DNA of 64,000 nucleotides from Sedimentisphaerales bacterium (GCA_016930635.1 JAFGGI010000019.1:9929-73928), one strand, 5' to 3'; numbered from the stretch's first letter, positions 3,453-42,737 are shown. Notes: a model not told the origin generated them from the letters alone. Program-made: numbers and translations.

Positions 3453-4301
3453 TCAGTAAATACCCGCGATAGGCACAAGAGAGTCGACTAATTTTTGTAT
3501 GGTATATTGACAAGTAAGATCTATATGCATCAGATGGCCATGATTATGCTGTGAATCTATAATAATAAGGTTTTTATTATTGCTCATCCAGCCGGTTTCC
3601 TGTACCTGATGGCCAAGCACGAAAAAATCAATATCAAGTTTATCAGCCATAAAATCAAGAGTTTCCTGGCTATGTCCTCTGCCCCAGGTCAGCAGATAAG
3701 CTGAATTAGGTCTTACAATATCATTTATTTTCAATTTTCTGACAAAGATTGAAAAGTCAAATTTTTCAAGCATTCTGTTTGCAGGCAGTGAATGCGATAT
3801 CCATATTCGGTTAGCGGTTTTAACTGCTAAAGGTTGTGAAAAAAGAAATTTTTCGATCGCACTTTCCACATCAAACACCCGGTCACCAAAACGCCTTTGC
3901 ATTGCAGCCCGCATCGCTGCGTTCATTTCCTTACCGCCCTTCATAACTTCGTTGTTGTTTATAAAGGCAGTATCATGATTTGCGAGAATAAAATGCACCC
4001 TGTCCGGATAATATATTTTCAGTTTGACAGCATCAGCCAGCACTTCAAATGACAGACAGCCGCCCTGTTCATCTTCAAGTCCGCCATGTATTATCTCCTG
4101 AAGTATCAGATGCCTGTCAGGATTTTTATCTAATGCGGCATAATTTACTACTCGCTCAAAATTGCGACGATGGCCGTGGATATCGCCGGCAATAACCATA
4201 TCACCCTTATCCGGCCCCACTATCAAATTATGTCGTCTGCAGCTGTCCTTATGGTTAGCTTCCATACCAATCTGCAGTAAATCTATAAAATTCTGCGTCA
4301 T
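3453..4301 (-). CDS. metallophosphoesterase, PPP-like Ser/Thr phosphatase
   Basis: GDIHGH and LANHD metallophosphoesterase motifs. 4-nt overlap with the upstream kinase gene. Confidence 0.7.
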   Translation of the reverse strand: MTQNFIDLLQIGMEANHKDSCRRHNLIVGPDKGDMVIAGDIHGHRRNFERVVNYAALDKNPDRHLILQEIIHGGLEDEQGGCLSFEVLADAVKLKIYYPDRVHFILANHDTAFINNNEVMKGGKEMNAAMRAAMQRRFGDRVFDVESAIEKFLFSQPLAVKTANRIWISHSLPANRMLEKFDFSIFVRKLKINDIVRPNSAYLLTWGRGHSQETLDFMADKLDIDFFVLGHQVQETGWMSNNKNLIIIDSQHNHGHLMHIDLTCQYTIQKLVDSLVPIAGIY

Positions 4302-5140
4302 TCCTGCCCGCCTAATTTCTTGGCAAAAATATTATGGATTAAAAGATCAAGCCTTGAAATCACCTGCGCCATTGAACTTGGACGCTGTTCCGGCTCCTCT
4401 TTAACACAGTCCATCACAATTTTCGAAACTCCAAGAGGAATTCTGCGATAGAGCTGGTGTGGTGCAGGAAAATCCCGCTGGCCAAGCATCGCAGATAAGT
4501 CATTTGTCTGCGGTATAAGCGTCGGCACATTCTTACCCGTCATCGCCCAGTACATAGTTGCCCCAAGATTAAATATGTCAGTCCTCCCGTCAAGGTGCAT
4601 CCTTTTAACCTGCTCCGGCGCGATATAATCAGGAGTGCCCTGTATCCTCGGCTTGATTGTACCGATTTTACAGCCCTGACCAAGGTCAATTATCTTAATA
4701 GCACCGGATTCGCTTATCAGTATATTGTTCGGTTTGATATCACAGTGAATATATCCCTGCTGATGCATGGCATTAAGGCCCGTAGCAACCATACGAAATA
4801 CCAACAGAACATCACCTAAACTCAGATTCCTGGATTTTTCGAGAGATTCACCTTCAAACATCTCCATGGTAAGTAACAATTCTTTAACCTGGAGCATTTT
4901 GCGGATCTTAATCAGTTTGCCGCATTTACGAAGGTATGGATGCTGAACTACCTTTGAAACCTTGTATTCATTCGTTATCTGCTCAAAAATTCTGGTATCT
5001 TCGGGCTTTTCATAAATTGCGCGTTTAAGCGCAATTGTATTGCCGGTTTCTTCATCCAGCGCAAGATAAATTATGCTTCGGGCACCAGTGCCAAGCTTCC
5101 TGATTATCGTAAAACCATCTAATTCGAGTCTGTCGGCCAT
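4298..5140 (-). CDS. serine/threonine protein kinase (kinase domain only)
   Basis: Hanks-type kinase motifs: GTGARSIIY...ALK, HCDIKPNNILI, DLG, GTPDYIAPE. Confidence 0.9.
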   Translation of the reverse strand: MADRLELDGFTIIRKLGTGARSIIYLALDEETGNTIALKRAIYEKPEDTRIFEQITNEYKVSKVVQHPYLRKCGKLIKIRKMLQVKELLLTMEMFEGESLEKSRNLSLGDVLLVFRMVATGLNAMHQQGYIHCDIKPNNILISESGAIKIIDLGQGCKIGTIKPRIQGTPDYIAPEQVKRMHLDGRTDIFNLGATMYWAMTGKNVPTLIPQTNDLSAMLGQRDFPAPHQLYRRIPLGVSKIVMDCVKEEPEQRPSSMAQVISRLDLLIHNIFAKKLGGQE

Positions 5141-5351: not shown

Positions 5352-5424
5352 TCCCCGATAGCTCAATTGGTAGAGCGAGCGGCTGTTAACCGCTAGGTCG
5401 TAGGTTCGAACCCTACTCGGGGAG
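5352..5424 (+). tRNA. tRNA-Asn (GTT)
   Basis: Manual cloverleaf: acceptor TCCCCGA/TCGGGGA, D arm GCTC/GAGC, anticodon arm AGCGG-CTGTTAA-CCGCT, T arm GTAGG-TTCGAAC-CCTAC, discriminator G. 73 nt. Confidence 0.95.
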
Positions 5425-5642
5425 CTTTATATTGGGTCGCTAAACTAAGCGACCCAACTGTTAACAACAAAGGCCGCCGGCGAAAACCTGTGGCCTTTTT
5501 CTTTTAAGTCCTTTTCTATAAAGACTTAGTGGCAATTCCCATGTTGCTGCCAAATCTCACCTGTTCGAAACCGAGAGTCAAGCAGCCCGATCTGAACTCG
5601 TGGTTTCCGGATCGCACCCCGATTCTAACGCGAAAACTCTCT
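5422..5642 (+). repeat. direct repeat copy A (tRNA-Asn 3' flank)
   Basis: Aligns with 16237-16458. By manual alignment the first 56 nt are identical, with ~24 substitutions and one 1-nt indel over 221 nt. Confidence 0.9.
5468..5505 (+). terminator. rho-independent terminator after tRNA-Asn
   Basis: Hairpin AAAGGCCGCCGG...CCTGTGGCCTTT followed by a T-run. Preserved in repeat copy B. Confidence 0.7.
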
Positions 5643-5921
5643 ATCTCTCTATTTGAGGCATCCCCGAATGGTTAACAGGAAAGTTAGATATGAGCCGCAT
5701 GAGAGACTTTGCGAAATGGGGCTTTTTCAGAGAGTGCTAAAACTCTCTCTGTCTCTGCGATCTTTCATCATAAGATGGGCTAAACGGCTTTGTTCTTTCC
5801 TGAACAAGGCCTATTTTTGTCTTTTCATGGAGAGAAACAGAGAAACTTGGCGGGTTTGTGTTTTCTAAAAAATCGCGTATAATTGTGGCTTTCATTTAAC
5901 CAAATAAATTCGTGATATATT

Positions 5922-7259
5922 ATGAAAAAAGAATTCCAGAAAAGCCAGTTTTTCGCCATTTATACTCGCCAGTCGAGAGAGTCCGGGCTGGATATGAATT
6001 CCTGTCAGGCCCAGTATGATATCTGCCTGAACCACGCCAAAAAACACCGCCCTTATATCTACTGGGTTGCTGAGCGTTTTGATGATGAAGGCTTTTCCGG
6101 GGCAACTCTGGATCGGCCTGCCCTGAATCGTCTTCGAGAGAAGATCAAAGAAAGGCGATTTACCCATGTCTTCATAACTTATCTTGACCGGCTCAGCCGT
6201 AGCCTGACAGATACTGCTATGCTGCTTGAGGAATTCCAAAAAGCTGGAATAAAACTGCATGTTGTCAAAATGCCCCAATTCAATACAGAAGTTCAGGGCA
6301 ATTTCTTGAGCAGCCTTCTGGCATCTTTTGCGGAATTTGAAAGGGATCTGATTAAGGAGCGAATAGCCTCTTCAAGAGAGCACCTAAAAGCCTATGGCCG
6401 CAGATTGGCAGGTCGTATTCCGTTTGGCTATGATACTGATCCTGCCACGAAGCAATTGATCGTTAATAAGGAGGAATCCGCTCAGGTGCAAAAGATATTT
6501 GCAATGGCCTGCGAGGGCAAAACTCCTTCTGGAATTACAGCTATTATCAATAAAAGAGGCTGGCGAACCAAAAGGCATATAGCCAAAAGCAGCGGCAAAG
6601 CAAGCGGTAATAATCACTGGCTGCCCCGGCAGATTGGAGCCATACTGAGAAATCCTGTCTATGTTGGTAAATTCAAAGACGGAAACTCTGCTCGTCACGG
6701 TGGACATGAAGCTATCATTGAGCCGGATCAGTTTGAAAAAGTTCAGCAGATAATTGACAGCCGTCGAACAAAAGATGTTTATGGGAAGCGATCAAAACGC
6801 AAGCATGACGAATTCCTTTTACGAGGCAAGATTATCTGCCCTAAGTGCGGGCGAAAGCTAACGACCGATACCGCCAACAAGAAACAAACCAATCGGAAAG
6901 GTGGCATCACTTACCGCTATTATCGCTGCCGTTCTACTGCTGGCGGCAAACCTCCCTGTAAAGATGTGCGGTATTCCGCCTATGAACTGGAACGGCTTGT
7001 CTGTGATGCTATGGGAGATGCAAAGTTCTGGCAGAAGATCAAGAAAGTCATGCCCAATGAAGCGGATACACTGAATAGGATGTTTACGATTTGGTCTTTG
7101 CTGGATGAATCTGTTCGGCAGGAGTTTATCCCCGACATCATCGAAGAAATCAGGTTGACCGAAAAAGACCAGATCCAAATCAGCTGCTACTCTGACCTAT
7201 TGAGTAGGTTCCCAATTTACAAGGGTATGCCGAAAACAGATTCGCTAAACAGTATATAA
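5922..7259 (+). CDS. large serine recombinase (resolvase/invertase N-domain + recombinase domain + zinc ribbon)
   Basis: N-terminal FAIYTRQSRE (catalytic Ser context), DRLSRS and FAEFERDLIKERI motifs. Later CPKCG...YYRCRS zinc ribbon. 445 aa. Confidence 0.9.
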   Translation: MKKEFQKSQFFAIYTRQSRESGLDMNSCQAQYDICLNHAKKHRPYIYWVAERFDDEGFSGATLDRPALNRLREKIKERRFTHVFITYLDRLSRSLTDTAMLLEEFQKAGIKLHVVKMPQFNTEVQGNFLSSLLASFAEFERDLIKERIASSREHLKAYGRRLAGRIPFGYDTDPATKQLIVNKEESAQVQKIFAMACEGKTPSGITAIINKRGWRTKRHIAKSSGKASGNNHWLPRQIGAILRNPVYVGKFKDGNSARHGGHEAIIEPDQFEKVQQIIDSRRTKDVYGKRSKRKHDEFLLRGKIICPKCGRKLTTDTANKKQTNRKGGITYRYYRCRSTAGGKPPCKDVRYSAYELERLVCDAMGDAKFWQKIKKVMPNEADTLNRMFTIWSLLDESVRQEFIPDIIEEIRLTEKDQIQISCYSDLLSRFPIYKGMPKTDSLNSI

Positions 7260-7368
7260 TGTGTGGATAATATTCCTGAAAACTGTGCTTGAGATTTGAT
7301 TATAGTCATGATATTGTTTTTATCATTAAATGTTTATTTGTTGCTAAGTCTAGTCCAGTTTGTAGGTT

Positions 7369-7551
7369 ATGAGTAAAGATAAGAATAAAAGAAAGATTGT
7401 TCATACATGTGGCGATTGCACTTTTTGGCTTACTTTGAAATCAAAGAAGCACTCAACAAAAGGTAATTGCAAAAAGTTCCTCTGTAAAAGAAGTTCTGAT
7501 AGCGGTGCCTGTTCGTCATATCACCAAGAAGGTTACCCAGAGAATTCGTAA
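7369..7551 (+). CDS. small Cys-rich hypothetical protein
   Basis: ORF only. Lys/Cys-rich with a CGDC...C..C pattern. No family recognised. Confidence 0.2.
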   Translation: MSKDKNKRKIVHTCGDCTFWLTLKSKKHSTKGNCKKFLCKRSSDSGACSSYHQEGYPENS

Positions 7552-7594
7552 AGTATTTGATTGTTTTCCAAGTTAATTCTTTTAGTTATCTTTT

Positions 7595-7717
7595 TCAAGA
7601 TTCAGTATGTTTTTGGTCAAGTCGATGTATGATACGCCGACACCATAAAACTAAAATAATCTGAAGGATCAGTGCTCCTGCTCCGACTAGAATACCAATT
7701 ATCATATCTTTGCTCAT
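7595..7717 (-). CDS. possible 40-aa single-TM peptide downstream of trkH
   Basis: My translation is MSKDMIIGILVGAGALILQIILVLWCRRIIHRLDQKHTES. The ATG lies 16 nt after the trkH stop. Below the ORF-track cutoff. Confidence 0.3.
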   Translation of the reverse strand: MSKDMIIGILVGAGALILQIILVLWCRRIIHRLDQKHTES

Positions 7718-7732
7718 AAAATCAACCTGATT

Positions 7733-9199
7733 TCATTTTGGTAGAATATCTCTGATTAGTTTTGCTGTTCCTGTTATTATTACAAAAAACTCCAGTCTCC
7801 CTAAGAGCATTCCAAAAATCTCGGCCCACAAAATAACAGGCGAGGCATGTGAGTTGGTTACCCCAACTGATAATCCCACGGTTCCTAGTGCCGATGCAAA
7901 TTCAAACAATGATTCCTTGAGACCTATGCCCGTCGAGGCGATGACAAGGCTGCCGATGATATAAGTGGCCAAATAGAGAAACACAAATGTCCCAATTTGT
8001 TTTATTCTGCCATCACTGATAAAATCTTTTTGCTCTCCCTGCCAGATGTGATTTTCTGAGACAGCGGTTCGGGGCAGAAAAAATCTTTTGATCTCCCAGA
8101 CAAATGATTTATACAGAACATATATTCTGTATTGCTTAATACCGCCTGCAGTCGAACAGGTTCCGCCACCAATTAGCATCAGCATAATCATCAGCAAAAA
8201 ACCAAATGAGTTCCAACTGCCGTAACCAACAGTTGAAAAGCCCGTTGTAGTCAATGCAGTTACAGTCTCAAAAACAGCAACACGAACGCTTTTCGACAGT
8301 GTTGGATATAAGCTTGTACAAACAAGAAAGAATAAAGCAACAGCACAGATCGGGATCAGCAGCAGCATTAAACGAACTTCGCCATTCTTGGAAGCTGCTT
8401 TAGTTTGGCCGTGAAAAAGCAGGTATGCTGTCAAAAAGTTCAAGTTACCCAATATCATCAGTGGTAAAGTTACAGCTTCAACTGAAATGGAATTCCAATG
8501 ACCTATACTGTCCACTTTAGTGGAAAATCCGCCGGTTGATATAGCAGCGAAGGTGTGATTAACCGCATCAAAGAGATCAAGACCGGCAATATAATATGCA
8601 ATTGTACCTATAATTGCATAAGCAGCATAAATCTTCATTACTAGTCTTGCCGATTGGCGTACCTGCGGCACCAGTTGTTGACTTCTGCCTTCTGCAATCC
8701 CCACAGCAGACCCAACAGGACCGACTATCGTAGCAAGCATTATTATGGCCAATCCCGCACCGCCTGCCAACTGCATGATACTTCGCCACAGCAAAATCAA
8801 ATTGCTGGACTGCTCTACATCGACCACCGATAAGCCTGTTGTCGTCCATCCGCTGACAGACTCAAATACAGCTTGTGTAAAACTGAGCTTCTGCAAGGCC
8901 ATAAAAGGCCACGCCGAAAACAGACAGACGATGAGCCAGCTTAAAACAACAATGACCGCACTCTGCTGAATATCAAGTGAGTGATCGTTTCTTTTTCTGA
9001 ACACGAACCACAGGAACACCCCCAATGCCGCCAACCCAATAGCAGGGACAGCCAAGCCCCATATCTGCTTGATTTCTTCAGGATAGAAAAAAAGGCAAAG
9101 CAGCGGCGAAAGCATCAATACACCAGACAAGATAAATATCAGTCCTGTGTAATGGAGTATATTTGAATATGATTGTATAAGTCCGTATTTTTGTTTCAC
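7733..9199 (-). CDS. trkH: TrkH/KtrB-family potassium uptake protein
   Basis: Polytopic membrane protein with four pore-loop glycine motifs (TTTGLS, STGGFS, TTTGFS, GTVGLS). Confidence 0.85.
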   Translation of the reverse strand: MKQKYGLIQSYSNILHYTGLIFILSGVLMLSPLLCLFFYPEEIKQIWGLAVPAIGLAALGVFLWFVFRKRNDHSLDIQQSAVIVVLSWLIVCLFSAWPFMALQKLSFTQAVFESVSGWTTTGLSVVDVEQSSNLILLWRSIMQLAGGAGLAIIMLATIVGPVGSAVGIAEGRSQQLVPQVRQSARLVMKIYAAYAIIGTIAYYIAGLDLFDAVNHTFAAISTGGFSTKVDSIGHWNSISVEAVTLPLMILGNLNFLTAYLLFHGQTKAASKNGEVRLMLLLIPICAVALFFLVCTSLYPTLSKSVRVAVFETVTALTTTGFSTVGYGSWNSFGFLLMIMLMLIGGGTCSTAGGIKQYRIYVLYKSFVWEIKRFFLPRTAVSENHIWQGEQKDFISDGRIKQIGTFVFLYLATYIIGSLVIASTGIGLKESLFEFASALGTVGLSVGVTNSHASPVILWAEIFGMLLGRLEFFVIITGTAKLIRDILPK

Positions 9200-9211
9200 G
9201 ATTTACTTCCC

Positions 9212-9877
9212 TTATACTTTGCTGCCGGTCAGAAATTTTAAAACCTGCCCATGGTTCTCAGGCATTGTGATTAGTACAAGTTGATCCTGTGCATGTAATT
9301 TCGTAGAGCCTCGCGGGATTATAGTACTGCCATTTCTTAAAATACAGGCGATGAGCGAATCAGCAGGAAGCTCTAATTCCATCAGTGAAGTATTAAGAAT
9401 CGGCGAATCGTCTTTTAAAATTACCTCTGTAACATTTACTTTACCTTCCGCTACTGAAAAAAGCCCTACAATATCTTCAAGGCCGGTACGCTGTTCGATA
9501 AGAGAAGATATAATATGTGTCGTTGAAAACGCAGTTGTAACACCAAGCTCATGAAATACTTCTTCGTTATCAGGGTCATTGACTAAAGCAAGTGTTCTTT
9601 CTACGCCATAATTTAACTTCGCCAGCTGGCAGATAACCAGATTGTCCTCATCATTGGGGGTAACAGCCAAAACTGCATCCATTGAAAAAGTCTTTGCGTC
9701 TTTTAGGATCTGTGGGTCTGTTGCATTGCCAAAAACTACCGTTGCCTTTGTTTGCCTTGCAAGCCAGCTGCATTCTTCTTTTTTGCGGTTGATGATGGTC
9801 ACATTATAACCTTTTGAGAAAAACACTTTGGCTAAAAAGTAAACAATCTTGCCGCCGCCTACAATTAATATATCCAT
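9212..9877 (-). CDS. trkA: TrkA/KtrA-type RCK protein (NAD-binding N domain + TrkA-C)
   Basis: MDILIVGGGKIVYFLAK Rossmann motif. The start is moved to the internal ATG at 9877, because the ORF-track extension overlaps the upstream gene. Confidence 0.8.
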   Translation of the reverse strand: MDILIVGGGKIVYFLAKVFFSKGYNVTIINRKKEECSWLARQTKATVVFGNATDPQILKDAKTFSMDAVLAVTPNDEDNLVICQLAKLNYGVERTLALVNDPDNEEVFHELGVTTAFSTTHIISSLIEQRTGLEDIVGLFSVAEGKVNVTEVILKDDSPILNTSLMELELPADSLIACILRNGSTIIPRGSTKLHAQDQLVLITMPENHGQVLKFLTGSKV

Positions 9878-9888
9878 ATTCACACCGT

Positions 9889-10320
9889 TTAACTTTCCGG
9901 ATTTTGTTTTAAGCTTGTTATCATTTTTTCTGCCGCCATAGTAGTTGGGCAGACACATTCAATACCTATTGCTTTGCAGAAAGACTCTTTATCGGGATCA
10001 ATAATTCTGACAAATACTTTTGGGACATTGAATCTGTTTTTAGCTATCTGGGCAGCCATGATGTTCACATTTTCATCATGGGTTGCACCAATTACGACAT
10101 CGGCCTTATCAATTTTTGCTTGCTTAAGAACGCCAAGCTCAGTTGCATCACCTTCTATTCTGAACCCGCTGAACTGATCCGGAGTTAATGCATCAAAAGC
10201 AGTTGTGCTGATATCTACCACGACAATGCTGTGCCCTTCATTGCTTAGTTTATTTGCAAGTAATGAACCGAGCCTGCCGCATCCAATTACAACAATATAT
10301 AAATTATGATTCGAAGTCAT
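9889..10320 (-). CDS. TrkA-N (RCK N-domain only) protein
   Basis: Rossmann-type RCK_N sequence VVIGCGRLGSLLANKL. 143 aa with no C-domain. Confidence 0.75.
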   Translation of the reverse strand: MTSNHNLYIVVIGCGRLGSLLANKLSNEGHSIVVVDISTTAFDALTPDQFSGFRIEGDATELGVLKQAKIDKADVVIGATHDENVNIMAAQIAKNRFNVPKVFVRIIDPDKESFCKAIGIECVCPTTMAAEKMITSLKQNPES

Positions 10321-10335
10321 CTTCTATGCCCGTAA

Positions 10336-11022
10336 TTAATAGGATGTTTTTTCATCGATTTTAATTTTCTCATCCGCATTGAGATTTGCATGAGTAGATC
10401 TGCTTAAATTATCCTGGGCTGGCTTATAAGTTGAGTCAAGTGAGAGAGCTGCCCTGTAATTTTTTTGACCTTCAAGTCTGTCGCCCTGTATTTCGCACAA
10501 TGCACCTAAAAAATTAAACGCATCAGGCCGAGATGGCTCCAGCGATATAGCTTTTTTGACATGCTCAACAGCTGCTTCCAAATGGTTGTCTTTAACACAT
10601 TGCTTGGCTAGTTTCAGACATGAATCATAATCTTGCTTTTTATCTTTGCCGTTTGACTCTCTTTGAATAAATTTAGAAACCAATTCCCTGATCTCTTTAG
10701 GAGTAAAAGGCTTCTGGATGAAATCAACAGCACCTTGCTTCATTGCCTCTACCGCCGAATCAATCGTGCCATGAGCGGTAACAATTATAATTTTGACATC
10801 AGGCCTATCCTTGCTGAGTCTGTCAAGTACCTGCATGCCATCAATTCCCGGCATGCGTAAATCAAGCAGTACAAGCCCGAAATCACCGTCTTCGAGTTTT
10901 GATAAAGCTTCCTCACCGTTTACAGCTGTGTCAATTTCAACATCCATATCCTCTAAGGACTGGGTAACAGTCATTCGGATATTTTTTTCGTCATCCACGA
11001 TAAGTATTTTGTTCGCTTTCAT
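10336..11022 (-). CDS. response regulator, receiver domain fused to TPR-like C-terminus
   Basis: KILIVDDEKNIR...LVLLDLRMPG...IIVTAHG receiver motifs. The ATG at 11022 is preceded by GGAGG; the ORF-track N-extension is rejected. Confidence 0.85.
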   Translation of the reverse strand: MKANKILIVDDEKNIRMTVTQSLEDMDVEIDTAVNGEEALSKLEDGDFGLVLLDLRMPGIDGMQVLDRLSKDRPDVKIIIVTAHGTIDSAVEAMKQGAVDFIQKPFTPKEIRELVSKFIQRESNGKDKKQDYDSCLKLAKQCVKDNHLEAAVEHVKKAISLEPSRPDAFNFLGALCEIQGDRLEGQKNYRAALSLDSTYKPAQDNLSRSTHANLNADEKIKIDEKTSY

Positions 11023-11042
11023 ATTAATACCTCCGATTAAAG

Positions 11043-12896
11043 TTAGCCTGCTACAGGAACAGTAAATGTAAAAGTGCTTCCATGATCGGGCTGTGAATCT
11101 ACCCATATCGTTCCGCCATGAGCCCGAACAATTTCTTTGCATATTGCCAATCCTAATCCGGTTCCGCCAAGTGCCTTTTCAGTTTTTACCTGAACAAATT
11201 TATCAAATATTCTTGATTGATATTCATAAGGAATTCCTGCCCCATTATCTGCAACAGAGATGTGTATCTGAGAACCCACTTCTTCTGCCGACAATTTAAT
11301 AAAGCCGTTAGCTTCTGTATAGCGCAAGGAATTTGAAATAAGATTGGTCAAAACCCATGTTATCTTGTTAACGTCAGCTTCAATATTGGGCAAATCAGGA
11401 ATGGACTCGTAGGACAAATCAATGTTTTTTTCCTCAGCCTGGTTTTTTAGCACTGCGACAGCCTTTTCAAGAAGCAATTCAACTGGAACTGAATCAAAAT
11501 CAATATCCATTTTACCTGCCTCTATCTTTGAAATATCCAGCAGGTCATTAACAAGTGCTTTAAGTCTTTGAACTTCTTCATCAGCTGCCAAAAGCAGTTC
11601 AGCCTCTTTTGAGTTCAGTTTATCAATAGCTTTTTCCCTTAAAAGAGAAATGCTCATCCCCATGCTTGTAAGCGGTGTTCTCAATTCATGAGAAGCAGCC
11701 ATCACGAACTCAGTCTTTAATCTGTCCAGTTCCTTCAGGCGGGTAACATCACGAAGAAGCAAAACCATACTGACCACCGATTCTTTTCCTATAATTACCG
11801 GGGTTGCGGAAAAAAGAAAATACCGCTGCACTTGACCGCTTTCAATTGTCAGTATGTTGGCATTGGGGTCTTGATCTTTTTTGACGATTCCTGCCTCCAA
11901 AGCCTGTTTAAGATAATTATAGAGCTTCTCATCCTTTGTAATTTCAAGCAGGTGGCTGCCTTTGATTTCATCAGAAGTCTTTTTGAAAATATCCGCTGCT
12001 GTAGGATTAATATCTTCAATTTTCAGTTCAGAATTTAATACGATCAGTCCGTCATCAATACTTCGAATAATGGCTTCACTCTTGTGTTTTTCGCTAAGTA
12101 TTTGCTTAACATTCAAATCACGATAGGCTTTTAATTTTTTAACCATTAGGTTAAAATCATTAGCCATCACTCCAAGTTCGTCACGTGAGTTGGCTTTTAC
12201 CTGAATATCATAATCACCTTCAGAAATTTTTTGAGTGGCATTGATTATCTGGTGAACCGGTTTTACGATAAGTCCCGCTAGCAGAAGACTGAATCCAAGT
12301 CCTGTAATAACAGAAACCGAACCGGCTGTAAAAACAGACCAGAATGCCCGATCAGCGACACTGTTAGCCCTGCTGCTGGCATTGAACATTGTTTCCTGAT
12401 TAATTTCTCTAAGCTTAACACACTCAGCCCTTACATCTTTAAAGGATGGAAGTACTGTCTCGTGATAGTATTCTGCCGCCTTGCTCGTATCGGTTTCTAC
12501 TATTGAGCTTAGATTAGTAAAAAAGATCAAATACTCTGAATAACCGTCACTGATCTTTTTAATAACAGATTCTTCGCCTGAGATTGTTATATTATCTCTG
12601 GCTCTGCCCAGCCATTGAAGAAAGTGACTCTCATTTTCACGAAACTGCTTTAATGCCTCATTCGGATAGTTCAACATGAGAAGCAGGATGGCACTGTCCT
12701 GCCTTTCAATTGAATCAACCATGTTCTCTGCTGCTAAAATACTTTTGTAATTTTCCCTGAGGATAGCATCAGCGGCATTGCCAAGGCGAACCATATTTAT
12801 CAAAGACCATACAATTACCGCAATAATAAGGCACAGTGCCAGACTATAACCGATCAGTATCTTTTTTCTTAATGTCCAGTATATCTTGCGTTCCAT
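11043..12896 (-). CDS. sensor histidine kinase (2 TM, periplasmic helical domain, HAMP, PAS, HisKA, HATPase_c)
   Basis: HAMP region, H-box SHELRTPLTS, DNGAGIP and GGTGLGLAICKEIV. Confidence 0.9.
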   Translation of the reverse strand: MERKIYWTLRKKILIGYSLALCLIIAVIVWSLINMVRLGNAADAILRENYKSILAAENMVDSIERQDSAILLLMLNYPNEALKQFRENESHFLQWLGRARDNITISGEESVIKKISDGYSEYLIFFTNLSSIVETDTSKAAEYYHETVLPSFKDVRAECVKLREINQETMFNASSRANSVADRAFWSVFTAGSVSVITGLGFSLLLAGLIVKPVHQIINATQKISEGDYDIQVKANSRDELGVMANDFNLMVKKLKAYRDLNVKQILSEKHKSEAIIRSIDDGLIVLNSELKIEDINPTAADIFKKTSDEIKGSHLLEITKDEKLYNYLKQALEAGIVKKDQDPNANILTIESGQVQRYFLFSATPVIIGKESVVSMVLLLRDVTRLKELDRLKTEFVMAASHELRTPLTSMGMSISLLREKAIDKLNSKEAELLLAADEEVQRLKALVNDLLDISKIEAGKMDIDFDSVPVELLLEKAVAVLKNQAEEKNIDLSYESIPDLPNIEADVNKITWVLTNLISNSLRYTEANGFIKLSAEEVGSQIHISVADNGAGIPYEYQSRIFDKFVQVKTEKALGGTGLGLAICKEIVRAHGGTIWVDSQPDHGSTFTFTVPVAG

Positions 12897-12940
12897 TGCT
12901 TAAATTCCTTGCACAAAAAAAATTCTATATGATTTTATAA

Positions 12941-12957
12941 ATGCAAACGGCATGCCT
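12941..12957 (-). promoter_or_regulatory. sigma-54 (-24/-12) promoter
   Basis: The minus strand reads aGGCATGccgtTTGCAt, which matches TGGCAC-N5-TTGCW with correct GG/GC spacing. About 45 nt upstream of the kinase ATG. Confidence 0.75.
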
Positions 12958-13011
12958 AAAATAAACCGATTTTTTGGCTTGAAACAGCGATTGCCAGCGA
13001 TAAACCTTGTG

Positions 13012-13056
13012 AAATGCAAAGTGGGAAGAATGCAACCTTGCAAAATGCAAGGTGGG
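13012..13056. promoter_or_regulatory. putative enhancer (UAS) for the NtrC-type activator
   Basis: AAATGCAA(A/G)GTGGG repeated 31 nt apart (13012 and 13043), flanking the inverted repeat TGCAA-CC-TTGCA (13031-13042). 55-115 nt upstream of the sigma-54 promoter. Confidence 0.5.
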
Positions 13057-13086
13057 TTTGAGATTGAAAAGTAAAAGGGAATGTGA

Positions 13087-14448
13087 TTATATATCGTAGG
13101 CTTTACGTTTCCGCCAGAGGGTTGCCTGATCAATACCAAGGATATCCGCTGCTTCCTGTAGTGATTTTGTGGAAGCTAAAATACGCCGGATGTGTTCTTC
13201 CTCGACTTTATCCAAAGAAATATTGTCACCCAATTTTGCGTGGGTTTTAGCAGGTCTAATAGTTTCGGGAAGATTTTCAATACTGATCGCATCTAATTTG
13301 CATAAAATTACTGCCCGCTCAATTACATTTCGCAGTTCACGAATATTACCCGGCCAACAGTGTTGTTTCAGTGCAGATAATGCATCTTCCGTAAATCCGG
13401 CGATGCTTTTATGATTTTGGCTGTTGAAAAACGCCAGCATATTTTCAGCCATATTTTGGACATCATCAGGCCTTTCACTCAAGGGCGGTATAAATATCTC
13501 AAAAACATTTAGGCGATAATAAAGGTCTTCGCGAAAACGTCCATCTTGTACAGCCTGTTGCAAATCAACATTTGTGGCAGCAATGATCCTTATATCGGCA
13601 GTCAATGTGCGATGATCGCCTACACGTTCATATTCTTTTTCCTGAATAAAACGTAAAAGTTTTGGCTGTAAAGTTAACGGTAGGTCTGCGATTTCATCAA
13701 GCAGAATTGTGCCTCCCTGGCACATGGCAATCCGGCCCGGATTATCTTTTATTGCCCCTGTAAAAGCTCCTTTAACATGACCGAATAACTCACTTTCCAA
13801 TAGTTCAGATTGCAATGCCGGACATGAAATCACTCCGAAAGGTTTATCGCTTCGGTTGCTCCATGAATGTATAGCTTTTGCCAACACGGTTTTACCGGTT
13901 CCACTGGGGCCTCTTAATAATACAATTGCATCGGATTCTGCCACCTGATGGGCCTGCTCTACAGCTTTTTGCATCGTGGCATATTTGCTGGAAAACATTG
14001 GTTCCGGTCCGGACTGTGTAAGATCATGCTGAAGCTGAGAAATATGCTGCTCCATGGATTGAACCTGTTGTATTCTGTTGAGGATGATAGCTACATTTTC
14101 AGGATCAAAAGGTTTAGGGATATAGTCGATAGCGCCTTTTTGAATAGCTTCTACAGCAGTGTCAATAGATGCATATGCAGTGATAACCACTATTTTTGCC
14201 CATGGTGCGGCTGTTTTGACATCAGGGATCAAATCCAGACCATTTGTTTGCCCCAGCCTCAAGTCTAAAAACACAAGATCGAAAACTTCTGTGCCGATCT
14301 CATTTAGGGCATCCTTGGCATTGCTCACCGCTTTTACATAGTGCCCCTCGCCCTCAAGGTAAATCCCCAGAGTTTTACGTATATTCGCTTCGTCATCTAC
14401 TATTAGAATCCGAAGAGCTAGCGGTATATTTCTTTCATGCATTGACAT
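13087..14448 (-). CDS. sigma-54-dependent response regulator (NtrC/Fis family: REC + AAA+ + HTH)
   Basis: Receiver motifs, Walker A GPSGTGKT, GAFTGA loop, ESELFGH and C-terminal Fis-type HTH. Confidence 0.92.
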   Translation of the reverse strand: MSMHERNIPLALRILIVDDEANIRKTLGIYLEGEGHYVKAVSNAKDALNEIGTEVFDLVFLDLRLGQTNGLDLIPDVKTAAPWAKIVVITAYASIDTAVEAIQKGAIDYIPKPFDPENVAIILNRIQQVQSMEQHISQLQHDLTQSGPEPMFSSKYATMQKAVEQAHQVAESDAIVLLRGPSGTGKTVLAKAIHSWSNRSDKPFGVISCPALQSELLESELFGHVKGAFTGAIKDNPGRIAMCQGGTILLDEIADLPLTLQPKLLRFIQEKEYERVGDHRTLTADIRIIAATNVDLQQAVQDGRFREDLYYRLNVFEIFIPPLSERPDDVQNMAENMLAFFNSQNHKSIAGFTEDALSALKQHCWPGNIRELRNVIERAVILCKLDAISIENLPETIRPAKTHAKLGDNISLDKVEEEHIRRILASTKSLQEAADILGIDQATLWRKRKAYDI

Positions 14449-14701
14449 TTATATTCATAATCCGTGTTTGTTAAGGAAAATATTTTATCATAAACTTCTT
14501 ATATATCAATAACTAAGATTCTATTTCGCTTGGGCTTTTATCAGTCGCTAATCACAACCACAAAAACCGGTAAGATTCAAGTCCGTTATTCATGATTATC
14601 AAGAATATTCGGTTTACGAATATCTGCCGAAATCGGATTGACTTAACAAATGTTAGAATTCACATTTGCTGCAATTCTGGAACAAATCCTCGTATGCAAA
14701 A

Positions 14702-15874
14702 CTACGATCCAACAAGTTCGGAAGTATTGCTGAAATTCAGCATGTGCGTTGTTTCAGATTGGGTTTCCATTTCGCCTGCATAAACAACCGAACCGGGCAA
14801 GGCCTCATCGAACCGATTGCAGAAATGCTTCAATTCCTTAGTCATATCCGGTGAATATGTCATCGCTGCCTTGATTTCGACAGGTTTTAGCTGTCGATGC
14901 TGGCGTATGATCAGGTCAACTTCATGGCCTTTGGTGTCCCGATAAAAATACAGGTTCGGCATCTGTCCTGCATTGAGTCTGGCCTTGAGAGCCTCGACAA
15001 CAACCATATTCTCGAAAAGATTCCCCATAAGAGGATCACGTGCGATTTGTTTGGCTGTTTCTATTTCCAACAGCCATGCGACCAGTCCGGGCTCTGTGAA
15101 ATACAGCTTGGGTGTCTTGATGGCACGCTTGTTGGCGTTTTCGAACCATGGCGGCAGTCGGAAAATGATAAACGAGGACTCAAGCACCGAAAGCCACTCA
15201 TTCAACGATGAGCGCGATACCCCGACATCACCTGCCAATGAACTGATATTGATAACCTGTCCGACCCGGCCAGCCAGTACCCGCATAAACTTTTCAAATA
15301 ACAGTAAGTCACGAATTGCAGCAAGCTGACGGAGGTCTCTCTCGATATAGTTCTGGAAATACTCCGAGTAAAGCGTTGTCGGGCGAATATCCTCGTGATA
15401 AAGACGAGGCATGAAACCCTTGAACAATATTTCATCTCTTTCAATCTTTACTCCTGCACTCTTCAGTTCTGCCAATGACAGAGGCAGTAATCTAAGCAAG
15501 GCAGTACGGCCAGCAAGCGATTGGCTTACTGCCGCTGCAAGCCCCATCTGATGACTGCCGGTGAGGATATATTGGCCCCGCTTACTTGTCTGGTCAGCGT
15601 AAACCTGTATATAGGAGAGAAGTTCGGGGGCACGCTGGACTTCGTCAATAATAACCGGTGCGGGATATGCACTAAAAAAAGCCTTCGGATCGCTTTGGGC
15701 CAATTTACGGACATCCGGCAATTCCAGATTGGCATAGGCGTATCCCTGACAGTACCGTTTGGCAAGCGAAGTTTTTCCGGACTGCCTGGGGCCGGTAATA
15801 GTCACCACCGGATACTCTTTACATACCCGGCTAAGTTCAACCTCTATCGAGCGATTTATCCATTTTATAGCCAT
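14702..15874 (-). CDS. AAA ATPase with DUF4143-type C-terminal nuclease-like domain
   Basis: Walker A GPRQSGKTS, IIDEVQ, and C-terminal EVDLI...VEIK (PD-(D/E)xK-like). Paralogue of 37547-38779. Start set at the internal ATG (MAIKWINR). Confidence 0.7.
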   Translation of the reverse strand: MAIKWINRSIEVELSRVCKEYPVVTITGPRQSGKTSLAKRYCQGYAYANLELPDVRKLAQSDPKAFFSAYPAPVIIDEVQRAPELLSYIQVYADQTSKRGQYILTGSHQMGLAAAVSQSLAGRTALLRLLPLSLAELKSAGVKIERDEILFKGFMPRLYHEDIRPTTLYSEYFQNYIERDLRQLAAIRDLLLFEKFMRVLAGRVGQVINISSLAGDVGVSRSSLNEWLSVLESSFIIFRLPPWFENANKRAIKTPKLYFTEPGLVAWLLEIETAKQIARDPLMGNLFENMVVVEALKARLNAGQMPNLYFYRDTKGHEVDLIIRQHRQLKPVEIKAAMTYSPDMTKELKHFCNRFDEALPGSVVYAGEMETQSETTHMLNFSNTSELVGS

Positions 15875-16195
15875 AAGCTTATCCTTTGTATTGGGATATC
15901 TTTTTAATTTCTTATAAGGCCAATCATAGCATATATGGAACATATTGCAAGGTTTAGTTATCAATATATCCCACTATTGCCATTTCAGAAAAGTCTCATT
16001 TTTCTGCTATTATGAACAAAATGACGACAGATGTTAGTTTCTATCATTAGCTTATATCGGATATTTTGCTACCTTTACTTTGCAATTTATCCCATATTTC
16101 TTGTTTTCAGCTTAGGGGTTAACAGTCTGAAAATGATAGAATTTGAGAAATTGATGAGATTGTAAGGCGTTATATAGTAAGTGGTTATGTATTTG

Positions 16196-16236
16196 GGCTG
16201 TTAACCATTCGGTCGAAAACCAGGAAGTATGTTTTT
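16196..16236 (+). other. degenerate tRNA-Asn anticodon-arm/3'-half fragment
   Basis: GGCTGTTAACC is identical to tRNA positions 5381-5391 and lies at the same 34-nt offset from the start of the direct repeat. The following bases are only partly conserved (GGTCG retained). Confidence 0.55.
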
Positions 16237-16458
16237 GAGCTTTATATTGGGTCGCTAAACTAAGCGACCCAACTGTTAACAACAAAGGCCGCAGGATAAA
16301 ACCTGTGGCCTTTTTCTTTTAAGTGCCTTTCTATAAAGACTTAGCGAACATTCCCCTGTTGTTCCAAAATCTCACCTGTTCGAAACCGAAAATATAGCTG
16401 TTCGATCTGAACTCGTGGTTTCCGGATCGAACCTTGATTCTAACTCGAAACACTCTCT
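16237..16458 (+). repeat. direct repeat copy B
   Basis: Aligns with 5422-5642, including both hairpins. Confidence 0.9.
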
Positions 16459-16520
16459 GTTTCTCTACAAAACTAAAACCGCATGGTTAACAACACTTCT
16501 TCAAAAAAACTCTTGACAAA

Positions 16521-17675
16521 TTGCAGACTATGAGTAGCATGACTTGTATAAATAACAGTTATGAAAAGTTAAGTATAAGATTAAAGATGACCCTAAAAAT
16601 AGACAATCGTTGCGATATTAATAACCGGAAAATTTTACCAACCAGTACGGTAGGTAGAGGTAAAACGGTATCAATTAAATCAAAACCATCTTTTGAGACT
16701 TGGAGTGACCAATATGTGTCATTGTATTTGGGAAATAGTTTAGAATTTTATAATGTTTGGACACCACCAACGGTTATAGTTTCTGATGGAGCTTATGGAA
16801 TTCTTGGATTTGAAGGCGATACTTCTGACCATTTGGGGCTGCCCGATTGGTATGAACAACACATCAAAGCATGGTCAAAATATGCATTACCTGAAACAAC
16901 GCTATGGTTTTGGAATTCGGAAATAGGATGGGCGGCTGTACACCCAATTCTGGAAAAATATGGTTGGAGATATCAAAATTGCAACATTTGGAACAAGGGT
17001 AAAGCTCATATTGCTGGCAATGTAAACACTCAAAAAATCAGACGCTTTCCTGTTGTAAGTGAAGTTTGCGTTCAATACACTTTTGAGGTAAAAATCGATG
17101 GATTGATTTTAAAACAATGGTTAAAAAAAGAATGGCAAAGAACAGGGCTACCACTTAAAAAAGCAAATGAGGCTTGTGGAGTTCGTGATGCAGCCGTTAG
17201 AAAATATTTAGACCAAGGCCATCTTTGGTACTACCCTCCACCTGAAATGTTTATTTTGTTACAGGAATATGCAAATAAATTTGGAGCCCCAGAAGGCCGA
17301 CCCTATTTTTCCTTAGATGGAAAGAGTCCTTGTTCAAAAAAAAAATGGTCAAAAATGAGAGCCAAATTTAAATGCCCACATGGATTTACAAATATATGGG
17401 ATAGAAATCCAACTAATGGCAAGGAAAGGATCAAATCCCCCAATGGCAAGGCAGCCCATTTAAACCAAAAACCTTTAGACCTGATGGAATTAATTATCGA
17501 ATCCTCTAGTTCTGTTGGCGACGTTATTTGGGAACCATTTGGAGGTTTATTTTCAGCGAGTCTTGCTGCAACTCAAATAAAACGCCATGCCTTTGCTGCT
17601 GAAATAGATAGCACATATTTTCAATTAGGAGTTGAAAGGTTTACTACAAATTTTCAGGGGCAAAAGTTATTTTGA
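16521..17675 (+). CDS. DNA methyltransferase (N4/N6, beta-class order) of a type II R-M system
   Basis: HLNQKPLDLMELII (HxxQKP-type motif) followed by EPFGGLFSAS (motif I-like). N-terminal VIVSDGAYG sits where DPPY/SPPY is expected. Start uncertain: TTG 16521, or ATG 16530/16587. Confidence 0.65.
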   Translation: MQTMSSMTCINNSYEKLSIRLKMTLKIDNRCDINNRKILPTSTVGRGKTVSIKSKPSFETWSDQYVSLYLGNSLEFYNVWTPPTVIVSDGAYGILGFEGDTSDHLGLPDWYEQHIKAWSKYALPETTLWFWNSEIGWAAVHPILEKYGWRYQNCNIWNKGKAHIAGNVNTQKIRRFPVVSEVCVQYTFEVKIDGLILKQWLKKEWQRTGLPLKKANEACGVRDAAVRKYLDQGHLWYYPPPEMFILLQEYANKFGAPEGRPYFSLDGKSPCSKKKWSKMRAKFKCPHGFTNIWDRNPTNGKERIKSPNGKAAHLNQKPLDLMELIIESSSSVGDVIWEPFGGLFSASLAATQIKRHAFAAEIDSTYFQLGVERFTTNFQGQKLF

Positions 17676-18552
17676 ATTTTTCGTGGAGAGTTGAAGACAG
17701 GCTGCTTTCGCTTCCTCGGAAAAGTAACTGACTCCACTCTTGTATTGACTTACCATGAATTTGTTTTAAGAGAACTTTTGATTTGAAGGCTTCAATTTGG
17801 GAGTGATTTATCCTGTCCATTTTAGCGAAATTGGTATCTAGCCTATAAGGGTATTTTGCTATCAATTCACGAAGTTTAATCTGATACTCCCTCGTAGGTT
17901 TATAATGACTACCATCAGCACCCCATGATTCCACAATTTTTTTTGCAGATTCAAACTGCTTTGGGTTACCTTGCCATTTATAACCATTTGTATTAGTCTG
18001 TTGTAGATTTCGAGTACGGGAAGTAGTGTCCTCCGGCTCTAAAACCAAATAATCTGGTGGATTGTGATAGTGTTCATCTCTTGCTTCAGCAATTGATAGA
18101 CCAGAGAATACACAAACATCAATAATTTCAGGATATCCAAATATTAAATTCTCTGGCAACCAAGCAAGCATGACAACGTGTGTTTTATCTTGCCCGAAAT
18201 GATTTTGGGAATCCTTGAAGCGTGCTGTGATCTCGGTTGCAAGAGGAAACCAAGCCTTAATTTCGAAACCCGGAGGCGGATCAATATCCCCTTCAAAAAG
18301 AGCGTCTGGAAAATCTGGGTCTTGGCGTTTCCAACTCCCAATAGATTTAAATTCATCGAGTGTATTTAAAAACTCAATTGTATTAAACTCAATAAGATTT
18401 CCAAGAATCGGTGAAAGCTTTGAAACAACTTTAGATAAGTTTAGAGCAAAAGCCATGGAATGAGGCTTGCCGATAATTAAAGAATCAAACCTATGCCCTT
18501 TGAGTCTTTGCAAGTGCTCACTCGCAATCTGAATGGCTTCCTGTGTATTCAT
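17644..18552 (-). CDS. putative type II restriction endonuclease
   Basis: Co-transcribed with and 4-nt overlapped by the controller gene; convergent with the methyltransferase. PD...(E)IK-like motif (PDFPD...GFEIKAW). Confidence 0.55.
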   Translation of the reverse strand: MNTQEAIQIASEHLQRLKGHRFDSLIIGKPHSMAFALNLSKVVSKLSPILGNLIEFNTIEFLNTLDEFKSIGSWKRQDPDFPDALFEGDIDPPPGFEIKAWFPLATEITARFKDSQNHFGQDKTHVVMLAWLPENLIFGYPEIIDVCVFSGLSIAEARDEHYHNPPDYLVLEPEDTTSRTRNLQQTNTNGYKWQGNPKQFESAKKIVESWGADGSHYKPTREYQIKLRELIAKYPYRLDTNFAKMDRINHSQIEAFKSKVLLKQIHGKSIQEWSQLLFRGSESSLSSTLHEKFKITFAPENL

Positions 18553-18800
18553 TTTTTCTTCTCAGAAAGTGTTAACAATTGGATTACACTTACATCAAGA
18601 GCGTGAGCTAATAACTCCAAAGAACTTAATGTAACATTACGTTCAGATCTTTCAACAGACCCAACATAGGTTCGATGCAAACCTGACAGTTCCGCTAATT
18701 TTTCCTGAGATAAATTTCGTTCCCGTCTTAGCTCGCGAATATTCTTGGCAAGAATATCTGCAATTTCTTTTGATGGTTTTCGAAAAGTTTTATTTTCCAT
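18549..18800 (-). CDS. controller (C) protein, XRE-family HTH
   Basis: 83-aa HTH protein (LSQEKLAELSGLHRTYVGSVERSERN), located immediately upstream of the nuclease gene. Confidence 0.8.
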   Translation of the reverse strand: MENKTFRKPSKEIADILAKNIRELRRERNLSQEKLAELSGLHRTYVGSVERSERNVTLSSLELLAHALDVSVIQLLTLSEKKK

Positions 18801-18876: not shown

Positions 18877-19186
18877 CATTTCGGGCGAAATATTATGCTT
18901 ATATTGTTGGTCATAGAAAATAATATTACCAGAAATGAATGTTTTTTCTAAAACCGCTGGTTAACAGCTTTTCGAGACATCAACTTTCTCTGAGCTATAC
19001 ACTCGAGTTCGGATCGATGTGCGATCCTGACTCGCTTTCTGGCGGACGTGCGGGAAATTGATGGATAAGTCGTTATCAGATAAGCTTTAATCTGGTGGTT
19101 AACAGGTTCAAAATCGGGTGCTTGAAATAATCTCAAATGCATGTGTTAGAATCGGTTGGGTTCGGGGAGTTTCAGTAAAAAAAGGC

Positions 19187-19216
19187 CATCCTATGACGGC
19201 CTTTTTCGCTAAATAT
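19187..19216 (-). terminator. rho-independent terminator downstream of the ELWxxDGT gene
   Basis: On the minus strand, GGCCGTC-atag-GATGGCC hairpin followed by T7. Confidence 0.7.
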
Positions 19217-22050: not shown

Positions 22051-22199
22051 AACACTAACCTCCTTTTCTCATCTGGCCGAAAAATATTGAAAACCCTCTG
22101 CAGCAGTTCTCTCAAGTTTGCAGCAATTCAAAAGGAGTGATAAGACTTATTTCAGCTATCCTCCTCAAGAATCGCTCAAAATATGTGATGTCCTATAAT

Positions 22200-22238: not shown

Positions 22239-22281
22239 GGAGGGATTTTATGCTCTTTTTAACCTTTTAGGAGTATTTACT

Positions 22282-42718: not shown

Positions 42719-42737
42719 TCCTGGTGTACATAAACAG

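Follow-up and report, generated by a model that had tools for sequence, protein, structure and literature searches.

The locus described here lies in a 64,000-nt stretch of DNA from a Sedimentisphaerales bacterium (GCA_016930635.1, JAFGGI010000019.1:9929-73928); this whole stretch is called the window, and positions given without a locus number refer to it. An intact tRNA-Asn gene is followed by two imperfect direct repeats, copy A (5422-5642) and copy B (16237-16458), and the segment between them carries a gene for a large serine recombinase. The locus raises the question of whether this is a mobile element, where its ends are, and how a serine recombinase comes to be placed at a tRNA gene. 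The original prediction, made from the sequence alone, was an integrated island, or tandem related islands, using the tRNA-Asn locus, with repeats too diverged for a fresh target duplication. Both points have gained support: related genomes with empty sites were found (L094, L104), the left ends of the units are homologous modules, and the repeats fit homologous left ends better than duplicated host target. We think it probable, with considerable room for doubt, that 5426-16235 is a serine-recombinase integrative element which lies just past the tRNA-Asn discriminator base and is followed in tandem by a related unit lacking a recombinase (16236-~19169). With similar confidence we take the 221-nt direct repeats to be the left-end modules (R) of these two related units, ~89% identical to each other, and not a target duplication.

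Extra DNA downstream of tRNA-Asn

The host side of the locus could be followed by means of the kinase gene to the left of tRNA-Asn (4298-5140), whose product matches a protein from a Sedimentisphaerales (Planctomycetota) metagenome-assembled genome (MAG) with 100% identity and has many orthologues. In L094 (kinase 91% identical in amino acid sequence, flanks 81% identical in DNA sequence over 5.2 kb) the kinase gene is followed by tRNA-Asn, 55 nt, and the stop codon of a histidine-kinase gene, the homologue of window 23704-25659. In L104 (87%) tRNA-Asn stands alone, in inverted orientation, between the kinase and histidine-kinase genes, and in L096, L099, L100 and L101 (86%) other genes come directly after tRNA-Asn and R is absent. 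In all empty-site relatives the homology to the window ends directly past ...CTCGGGGAG, i.e. at the discriminator base (...GGGGAG), and it resumes at ~23640, ahead of the histidine-kinase gene. Since these relatives carry the same flanks without the segment, the DNA from 5426 to ~23640 is, by this comparison, extra in the window, and the repeat is not ancestral host sequence. The empty site anticipated in the original prediction was tRNA-Asn with a single repeat copy, followed possibly by the restriction-modification (R-M) cassette; empty sites do occur, but they contain neither a repeat copy nor the R-M cassette. The insert is larger than the segment 5422-16458, it extends to ~19.2 kb and possibly to 23.6 kb. 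A composition test, also suggested earlier, is uninformative here: the GC content is 0.38-0.47 inside the insert and 0.40-0.45 outside, with no step at the borders.

A column-by-column count of the repeats gave 56 identical nucleotides up to a first mismatch at 5478, then 24 substitutions and one 1-nt indel, in exact agreement with the ~221-nt repeats, 56 identical nucleotides, ~24 substitutions, single indel and ~89% identity of the original prediction. A repeat search returned 5422-5635 and 16237-16450 (89% identity), and a BLAST E-value of 2.7e-61 between copies A and B means that their likeness is not due to chance. As had been noticed, copy A begins in the last nucleotides of tRNA-Asn, the end of which is at 5424 according to Rfam and at 5425 according to ARAGORN. 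The two hairpins are indeed kept in both copies: hairpin 1 (5432-5457) falls within the identical stretch, and in hairpin 2, which is followed by a run of T, the basal stem is unchanged and three substitutions (5478, 5481, 5482) are in the upper part. The recurrent CT-rich motif was found three times in forward orientation (0.01 expected) and once reversed (Table 1). Absent from the original prediction was that the likeness resumes ~30 nt beyond both repeats, with CCG.ATGGTTAACA at 5664-5677 and 16479-16492.

R is predicted to be strongly structured. Folded as RNA, 5426-5690 reaches -82 kcal/mol compared with -59 +/- 4.6 in shuffled sequences (z = -5.0), and in the predicted fold CUGUUAAC (5458-5465) pairs over a long distance with the GGUUAACAG site (~5669-5677). 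With Rfam, at gathering as well as permissive thresholds, the repeat region gave only the tRNA, and a scan of metagenome contigs with a 20-mer of the core yielded three chance matches, none resembling the window. One Logan contig (L001, from SRR13394437) corresponds to window 5448-7666; its left break is explained by the 56-nt identical stretch (k = 31), and its right break, at 7666, is within the spacer before trkH. Exact-protein look-ups with the recombinase and the kinase led to short contigs of this one run only (SRR13394437), and with TrkH to none.

Other rearrangements were seen at the tRNA-Asn locus of the relatives. In L104 (2600-2674) and L105 (17-91) tRNA-Asn and its promoter are inverted with respect to the kinase and histidine-kinase genes, unlike in the window, L094 and L095-L101. 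L095 (7698-9788; also L097 and L098) differs from L096, L099, L100 and L101, despite an identical kinase protein, by a 2,016-nt insert. It contains a 533-aa open reading frame (ORF) for which Pfam has no match, and on either side of it stands a complete tRNA-Asn gene together with ~35 nt of leader; these two stretches (116 nt) are 89% identical to each other.

A serine recombinase clade tied to tRNA-Asn and tRNA-Gln

By domain and catalytic-motif tests the 445-aa protein is a large serine recombinase. The Resolvase (PF00239, E = 4.7e-30), Recombinase (PF07508, 1.4e-13) and Zn_ribbon_recom (PF13408, 7e-9) domains were recognized, the serine-nucleophile motif A-I-Y-T-R-Q-S (residues 12-18) is invariant in 28 relatives, and the PDB matches are the integrases of TP901-1, SPbeta (SprA) and A118 (A118 C-terminal domain). 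The gene was correctly placed 280 nt inside copy A, counted from 5642. No tyrosine recombinase was found among the ten main ORFs scanned in 5922-18552 or in the 83-aa helix-turn-helix (HTH) ORF (18549-18800), and the sole recombinase among the ORFs scanned between 5922 and 18800 is of the serine type.

A family scan with one genome per species yielded 78 loci with relatives of the recombinase (33-92% amino acid identity), in Phycisphaerae and other Planctomycetota, Verrucomicrobiota, Acidobacteriota (Bryobacterales), Desulfobacteraceae and Myxococcota. In 34 of the 78 a tRNA gene lies on the same strand not more than 5 kb upstream, and it is tRNA-Asn (25 loci) or tRNA-Gln(TTG) (9 loci), never another type; the linkage is 30/50 among loci having at least 5 kb of upstream sequence, and four further contigs begin within tRNA-Asn. 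The tie of this recombinase clade to tRNA-Asn and tRNA-Gln is conserved across phyla. The architecture of the window recurs in at least nine loci, among them L041, L047 (three copies), L058, L039, L056, L061, L074 and, in a patchier form, L014. In these loci direct repeats of 145-360 nt with 82-95% identity start from the last bases of the tRNA and enclose the recombinase gene, the copies being spaced 2.2-7.5 kb apart. Tandem arrays were found in L047, where each repeat is followed by the same recombinase-upstream sequence, in L039 and L061, which have two recombinase genes in tandem, and in the window, where the R modules form 89% identical ends and unit 2 is without recombinase. The R sequences are lineage-specific, but share ordered motifs across phyla: GTTRAC ~36 nt past the tRNA, TCTC..GTTCGAAAC, GAAYTCTC-N4-TTCTC, GTTRACAG and TTTCGAAATCGG. 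In L014 hairpin 1 differs between the copies by compensatory changes, and because these keep the hairpin, it appears to be under selection.

The junctions themselves are also conserved. In nine proximal/distal copy pairs from eight loci the identity always starts at GAG(C), and the 18-20 nt to the left of GAG in the distal copies read TGTCAGGG-N4-6-TTTGAG in the Asn and Gln groups alike; the window arm at the junction reads ...CCAGGAAGTATGTTTTTGAG. At the corresponding place tRNA-Asn and the linked tRNA-Gln genes both have GGTTCGAAYCC...YCGGGGAG. This pattern is the one expected if an element half-site (the arm) and a chromosomal half-site (the tRNA end) had swapped partners at a short core. 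In the window the arm, not noticed in the original prediction, is a 45-nt pseudo-tRNA (16191-16235, GGCTGTTAACCATTCGGTCG...GTATGTTTTTGAG), the presumed element half-site (P arm), which aligns without gaps to tRNA-Asn from the anticodon stem to the 3' end and is ~58% identical to it. Its length and orientation fit a tRNA fragment, yet it is kept in a non-tRNA form across phyla, and it is probably not a displaced tRNA-Asn copy.

The closest relatives show the element in other surroundings. Seven contigs (L003-L009) carry, downstream of tRNA-Asn, R and then a recombinase with 89% protein and 91% DNA identity, and the genes upstream are unrelated, i.e. the same recombinase + ATPase element is found in unrelated genomic contexts. 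In these contigs the recombinase gene is joined straight to the gene of its backbone partner, the AAA_14/DUF4143 ATPase (window 7242 abuts 14610), and since the relatives join these two points directly, the 7.4-kb Trk/two-component block of the window is, on this comparison, a later insertion into a 3.4-kb backbone, between recombinase and ATPase. In L015 an ATPase gene, a pseudo-tRNA, a single R and a recombinase gene follow one another, with window 15190-16467 fused to 5422-6682; such a junction would be expected in a circular unit (attP-type) or where one complete unit stands in tandem with another. L010 is a single element with AbiE as its cargo, and here the pseudo-tRNA-type arm abuts DNA unrelated to R. 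The right ends of the elements in L003 and L005-L009 were not recovered.

Some further features of these contigs deserve mention. In L003 (region 6167-7339) the element breaks off a short way upstream of the ATPase gene, at the equivalent of window position 16036, and in L005-L009 it does so at the same point; in L003 and L005 a DDE_Tnp_1 transposase gene was called in the new sequence, and L006-L008 share the breakpoint sequence and end before the gene. L013 and L015 come from a MAG labelled 'uncultured Candidatus Kuenenia sp.' (GenBank CAZITB01); they are ~90% identical to the window element, and their recombinase variants differ (93% identical to each other). These contigs were probably mis-binned, or the element was transferred between lineages. 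A Kuenenia host for the window itself was rejected, as both the flanking kinase and the gene order of the locus agree with Sedimentisphaerales. An ORF of ~91 aa of the GIY-YIG type was seen between an intact tRNA-Asn and a tRNA-like copy (L028:5689-6094, L003:2098-2965, L006:618-1301, L007:1-612). In the tRNA-like copy the 5' side of the anticodon stem-loop is swapped for a short hairpin (GAGCGAG / TCCGCCCGAGGCGGA / TTAACCGC), in L028 the tRNA 3' half recurs as a perfect 41-nt repeat from the anticodon on, and L003, L006 and L007 have 2-5 tandem 84-nt pseudo-tRNA units upstream of the real tRNA. The arrangement looks like a separate small element that enters the anticodon loop of tRNA-Asn and restores the gene.

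As to cargo, the defence genes found in elements of the clade are PDC-S01, type II R-M and, in L010, AbiE. In unit 2 of the window the R-M genes are present and a recombinase is absent, and the cassette (16521-18800) is bracketed by AAAACCGC(A)TGGTTAACA at 16474-16492 and 18949-18966. The unit 2 remnant has a TTCAAAATCGGG motif and remnants of the recombinase-upstream region; at 19162-19169 it has the tRNA-3'-end-like TCGGGGAG, the only other copy in the window, followed by a terminator hairpin. The ~40-nt imperfect repeat on either side of the Trk/two-component block is a duplicate of the sequence found between the recombinase and ATPase genes in the relatives, and the block has no recombinase of its own. 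Searches of phages, plasmids and IMG/VR found no close relative of the recombinase: identity did not exceed 32% for any phage or plasmid homologue and 36% for any IMG/VR homologue. Some of the distant IMG/VR relatives also start with tRNA-Asn, Gln or Met.

Table 1. Features of the tRNA-Asn locus in the window (unit assignments and the crossover core are presumptive)
Feature	Position	Strand	Remarks
tRNA-Asn(GTT), intact	5352-5425	+	ARAGORN 5352-5425; Rfam 5352-5424
GAG at acceptor end/discriminator, presumed crossover core of left junction (tRNA / element)	5422-5424	+	
R module copy A, unit 1 left end	5426-5682	+	
GTTAAC 'site a'	5460-5465		in R copy A
Terminator-like hairpin 2	5469-5498		in R copy A
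Palindromic T-loop-like core ATCTCACCTGTTCGAAACCGA	5553-5574		in R copy A
CT-rich motif	5637-5649		in R copy A
GGTTAACA site S2	5670-5677		in R copy A
Recombinase upstream region	5683-5921	+	conserved ~90% in L003-L009 and L015
Second CT-rich motif	5743-5755		in recombinase upstream region
Hairpin	5786-5811		in recombinase upstream region
Inverted CT-rich motif	5831-5843		in recombinase upstream region
Promoter-like site	5896-5923		in recombinase upstream region
Large serine recombinase, 445 aa, intact, motif YTRQS	5922-7259	+	Pfam PF00239, PF07508, PF13408
~40-nt imperfect direct repeat flanking Trk/two-component block, left copy	7222-7262	+	
Trk/two-component cargo block	7263-14607	-	absent from relatives
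60-aa Cys-rich ORF	7369-7551	+	left edge of block
TrkH	7733-9199	-	
TrkA	9212-9958	-	
TrkA-N	9889-10320	-	
Response regulator-TPR	10336-11142	-	
PAS/HAMP histidine kinase	11043-12896	-	
Sigma-54 activator	13087-14448	-	
~40-nt imperfect direct repeat flanking Trk/two-component block, right copy	14608-14650	+	
AAA_14/DUF4143 ATPase, candidate defence	14702-15964	-	PADLOC candidate family PDC-S01, E = 2e-99
Unit 1 right end: conserved right-end region, then pseudo-tRNA arm	16150-16235	+	
R module copy B, unit 2 left end	16236-16493	+	core 16368-16389, CT motif 16453-16465
GGTTAACA site S5	16485-16492		in R copy B
Type II methyltransferase	16521-17675	+	
Type II restriction enzyme	17644-18552	-	E = 5e-47
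HTH controller-like protein, 83 aa	18549-18800	-	
Unit 2 remnant right part, candidate distal end of array	18949-19206	+	
GGTTAACA sites S6 and S7	18959-18966; 19097-19104		in unit 2 remnant
Region absent from empty-site relatives	19234-23640	-	938-aa repeat/dockerin protein and 430-aa beta-helix protein

Proposed integration at the tRNA 3' end and alternative readings

In the model that we favour, each unit would consist of R, a structured left end of ~260 nt, followed by recombinase and/or cargo and by a right arm, which mimics part of the tRNA 3' half and ends in ...TTTGAG. R would supply the tRNA with a new terminator-like hairpin and the recombinase gene with its upstream region. Recombination of the attP site of a circle (arm / R) with attB (tRNA 3' end / downstream) would produce tRNA / R ... 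arm / downstream; the crossover would be in or beside the shared GAG, and the tRNA would stay whole. The chromosomal half-site (B arm) would be the conserved T-arm/acceptor end, i.e. the last ~22 nt of tRNA-Asn (GGTTCGAACCCTACTCGGGGAG), and the other half would be free to vary. Since the resident tRNA / R junction keeps the tRNA half-site, a second unit could enter before the first, and further units would come to lie in front of older ones; in the window the order would be tRNA / unit 1 (5426-16235) / unit 2 (16236-~19169) / rest, with the Trk/two-component block gained by unit 1 afterwards. The model builds on the insertion relative to the empty-site genomes, the positions of the junctions, the linkage to tRNA genes across the family, and the conservation of the arm and of the motifs; from these we infer the activity of the recombinase, the exact crossover, the tolerance for the right half and the order of arrival.

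It must be noted that several points weigh against this model. Large serine recombinases normally read both attB half-sites and do not target attL; the model assumes tolerance for any right half-site. The empty-site relatives are, at ~81% DNA identity, different species, so that they attest insertion and not recent mobility. Instead of a circle, the L015 sequence could represent the junction of one unit with the next, or an assembly chimaera. The pseudo-tRNA mimics the anticodon arm 30-45 nt from the junction, which is beyond a normal half-site, the degenerate distal end of unit 2 could be placed at 19169 only tentatively, and no directionality factor was identified. Finally, copies A and B form a mosaic that switches at a 22-nt core, for which a crossover inside R is the more direct explanation.

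The mosaic leads to a reading in which the recombination site would be that palindromic T-loop-like core (5553-5574 and 16368-16389). Unit 1 would have entered by exchange between its R and a resident R, either recombinase-mediated or homologous, the 10,815-nt segment would in truth end at the two cores, and the repeats would be attL/attR hybrids. Of the 24 substitutions between copies A and B, 17 lie not more than 25 nt from the invariant 22-nt core. Both L015 and L003 are B-like to the left of the core (at 9/12 and 9/10 diagnostic sites, respectively) and A-like to the right (13/14 in each); compared with these two, copy A departs on the left side and copy B on the right side, as would follow from a reciprocal exchange at the core. 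Between the Asn and Gln groups, moreover, the motif TCTC..GTTCGAAAC is conserved. We nevertheless regard this reading as unlikely. The empty sites have no R, which rules out core exchange as the primary insertion route, and in L041, L047 and L058 the differences between copies are not clustered around the core. The palindrome is centred on CG, and such a symmetric dinucleotide does not suit directional serine recombination; homologous exchange in any of 4-5 identity blocks could yield a similar mosaic. The mosaic could be due to homologous recombination in an identity block, or to a second site-specific activity.

Less probable still is that the recombinase acts on GTTAAC sites, which resemble the tRNA-Asn anticodon loop (5384, 5670, 16117, 16199, 16485, 18959 and 19097), the island and the R-M genes being cassettes between them. 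GGTTAACA occurs 8 times against 1.8 expected, with 7 of the occurrences in this region; CCGAATGGTTAACAG forms a 15-nt inverted pair at 5664-5678 and 16197-16211, direct repeats of AAAACCGC(A)TGGTTAACA lie on both sides of the R-M cassette, and the GTTAAC sites of L041 repeat the tRNA anticodon arm exactly, in inverted orientation, over 18-19 nt. In Gln-linked relatives, however, the same positions are occupied by GTTGACAG, which does not match the anticodon loop of tRNA-Gln, and the L015 junction is A-like through S2 instead of being the S5/S2 hybrid that this reading predicts. Crossover in the anticodon loop would give a non-functional tRNA, given the pseudo 3' half, and GTTAAC is itself a palindrome. 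The sites are more suggestive of conserved promoter elements or protein-binding sites than of crossover points.

In a further reading, which we consider very improbable, R would be a non-coding module with a function of its own, as a structured RNA or as a terminator-promoter unit, and copies of it would have arisen by simple duplication or by homologous recombination; the region would no longer be mobile, with the recombinase as passenger or decayed remnant. In favour of it, R folds far better than shuffled sequences (z = -5.0), its hairpins are conserved with compensatory changes in L014, the GC content of the region is indistinguishable from that of the flanks and no Rfam family matches R. 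Against it, the recombinase ORF shows no disruption and is conserved at 89-91% in a number of unrelated contexts, R always accompanies this recombinase clade and is absent at tRNA-Asn loci without recombinase, and the conserved arm at the junction is hard to explain without site-specific recombination.

Some narrower ideas were tried and dropped. A crossover in the anticodon loop was rejected because the 3' half on the element side is non-functional, and because the tRNA is whole and directly followed by R. A host attB composed of the left part of copy A and the right part of copy B was rejected as the primary target, the empty sites being without R. Covariation of GTTAAC with the anticodon was not found in the Gln group, and the symmetric +/-35-nt arrangement of GTTAAC is not general, its spacing differs in L010.

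Returning to integration at the tRNA 3' end, a bolder version of this model can be formulated, which we put forward tentatively and consider doubtful. The clade would read only the T-arm/acceptor end of tRNA-Asn/Gln, which is universally conserved, and tolerate any other half; with such tolerance each insertion would regenerate a usable target, so that units accumulate. The R core and the GTTRACAG sites would be secondary points at which modules or cargo (e.g. the R-M cassette) are swapped, and the whole would amount to an integron-like serine-recombinase platform, sited at a tRNA gene, for small defence cassettes.

Beyond unit 2, the surface-protein genes at 19234-23574 may be members of the array or a separate lineage-specific insertion. 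The ORF at 19234-22050 (minus strand) contains 16 tandem repeats of ~141-147 nt (47-49 aa) at 19520-21888; its 938-aa product has a C-terminal dockerin domain and weak DUF4082 matches, and the adjoining gene encodes the 430-aa beta-helix/PMP-repeat protein. Elsewhere in the window there are three copies of a 232-nt direct repeat (42033-42264, 42488-42719 and 54599-54830; 78% and 62% identity to the reference copy), a 30-nt companion repeat of this family (41991-42020 and 42409-42438), and, at the right edge, a cobalamin riboswitch (63789-63992, minus strand; Rfam RF00174, 77.9 bits).

Comparison with known systems

A serine recombinase at a tRNA gene was called unusual in the original prediction, and the literature agrees: tRNA genes were long regarded as a target of tyrosine integrases alone, the standard reference on tRNA-gene islands states that serine integrases are not known to target tRNA genes (PMC4383910), and precedents are scattered. 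In the open-access literature we found only two for serine recombinases at tRNA sites or in tRNA-island elements, although reports may have been missed. Paracoccus phage vB_PamS_Pami6 has a serine recombinase and a predicted integration site in a tRNA (Met) gene (PMC6536676), and among 937 tycheposons and cryptic elements there are 27 in which a large serine recombinase takes the place of the tyrosine recombinase (bioRxiv 10.1101/2020.12.28.424599).

From the sequence comparisons presented here, the elements of the window and its relatives are a coherent clade of serine-recombinase elements that target the tRNA 3' end; the clade spans several phyla, has been barely described, and has a distinctive architecture and defence cargo. 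If the half-site proposed above is right, these enzymes would recognize a sequence present in nearly every bacterium, which would explain the phylogenetic spread of the clade and make them attractive as integration tools that need no landing pad. For programs that search for tRNA islands the clade is a concrete reason to stop excluding serine recombinases, and the predicted signature of such islands is tRNA / R ... TTTGAG / R.

It is interesting to compare the window with the classes of elements that it resembles. The prophages and elements with serine integrases (phiC31, Bxb1, TP901-1, A118/LI, SPbeta SprA) have the same protein architecture (catalytic Ser, recombinase domain, zinc ribbon), and in them, too, the recombinase gene is near one end of the element. 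Unlike in these, the target in the window is the 3' end of a tRNA gene and not a protein gene, the units of the clade can be as small as 2.2-3.2 kb, with little beyond the recombinase, and they have a long structured left module, a tRNA-mimicking right arm and stacked arrays. The tRNA/tmRNA islands with tyrosine integrases (Islander/TIGER class) share with the window the insertion at a tRNA gene, the intact tRNA, the tandem arrays and the defence or accessory cargo, but the recombinase is of a different family, the tRNA in the window has not been split, and the distal 'fragment' is probably something other than a displaced tRNA copy. The island appears to act like a tRNA-gene island, and it falls outside the Islander definition in its recombinase family and, probably, in its distal fragment.

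With respect to the tandem arrangement, a parallel is the accretion of ICESt1/ICESt3 and recombinase-less CIMEs in Streptococcus thermophilus, where a complete element is likewise in tandem with a related unit that has kept its att-type ends, is without recombinase and is possibly moved in trans; ICESt1/ICESt3 differ from the window in having a tyrosine integrase, a protein-gene target and short identical repeats. The tycheposons of Prochlorococcus are similar to the window in being small cargo elements at tRNA genes with tandem junctions, they differ in their hosts and in often carrying replication or packaging genes. vB_PamS_Pami6 has, like the window, a serine recombinase together with a tRNA site, in its case a predicted one; it differs in being a full prophage.

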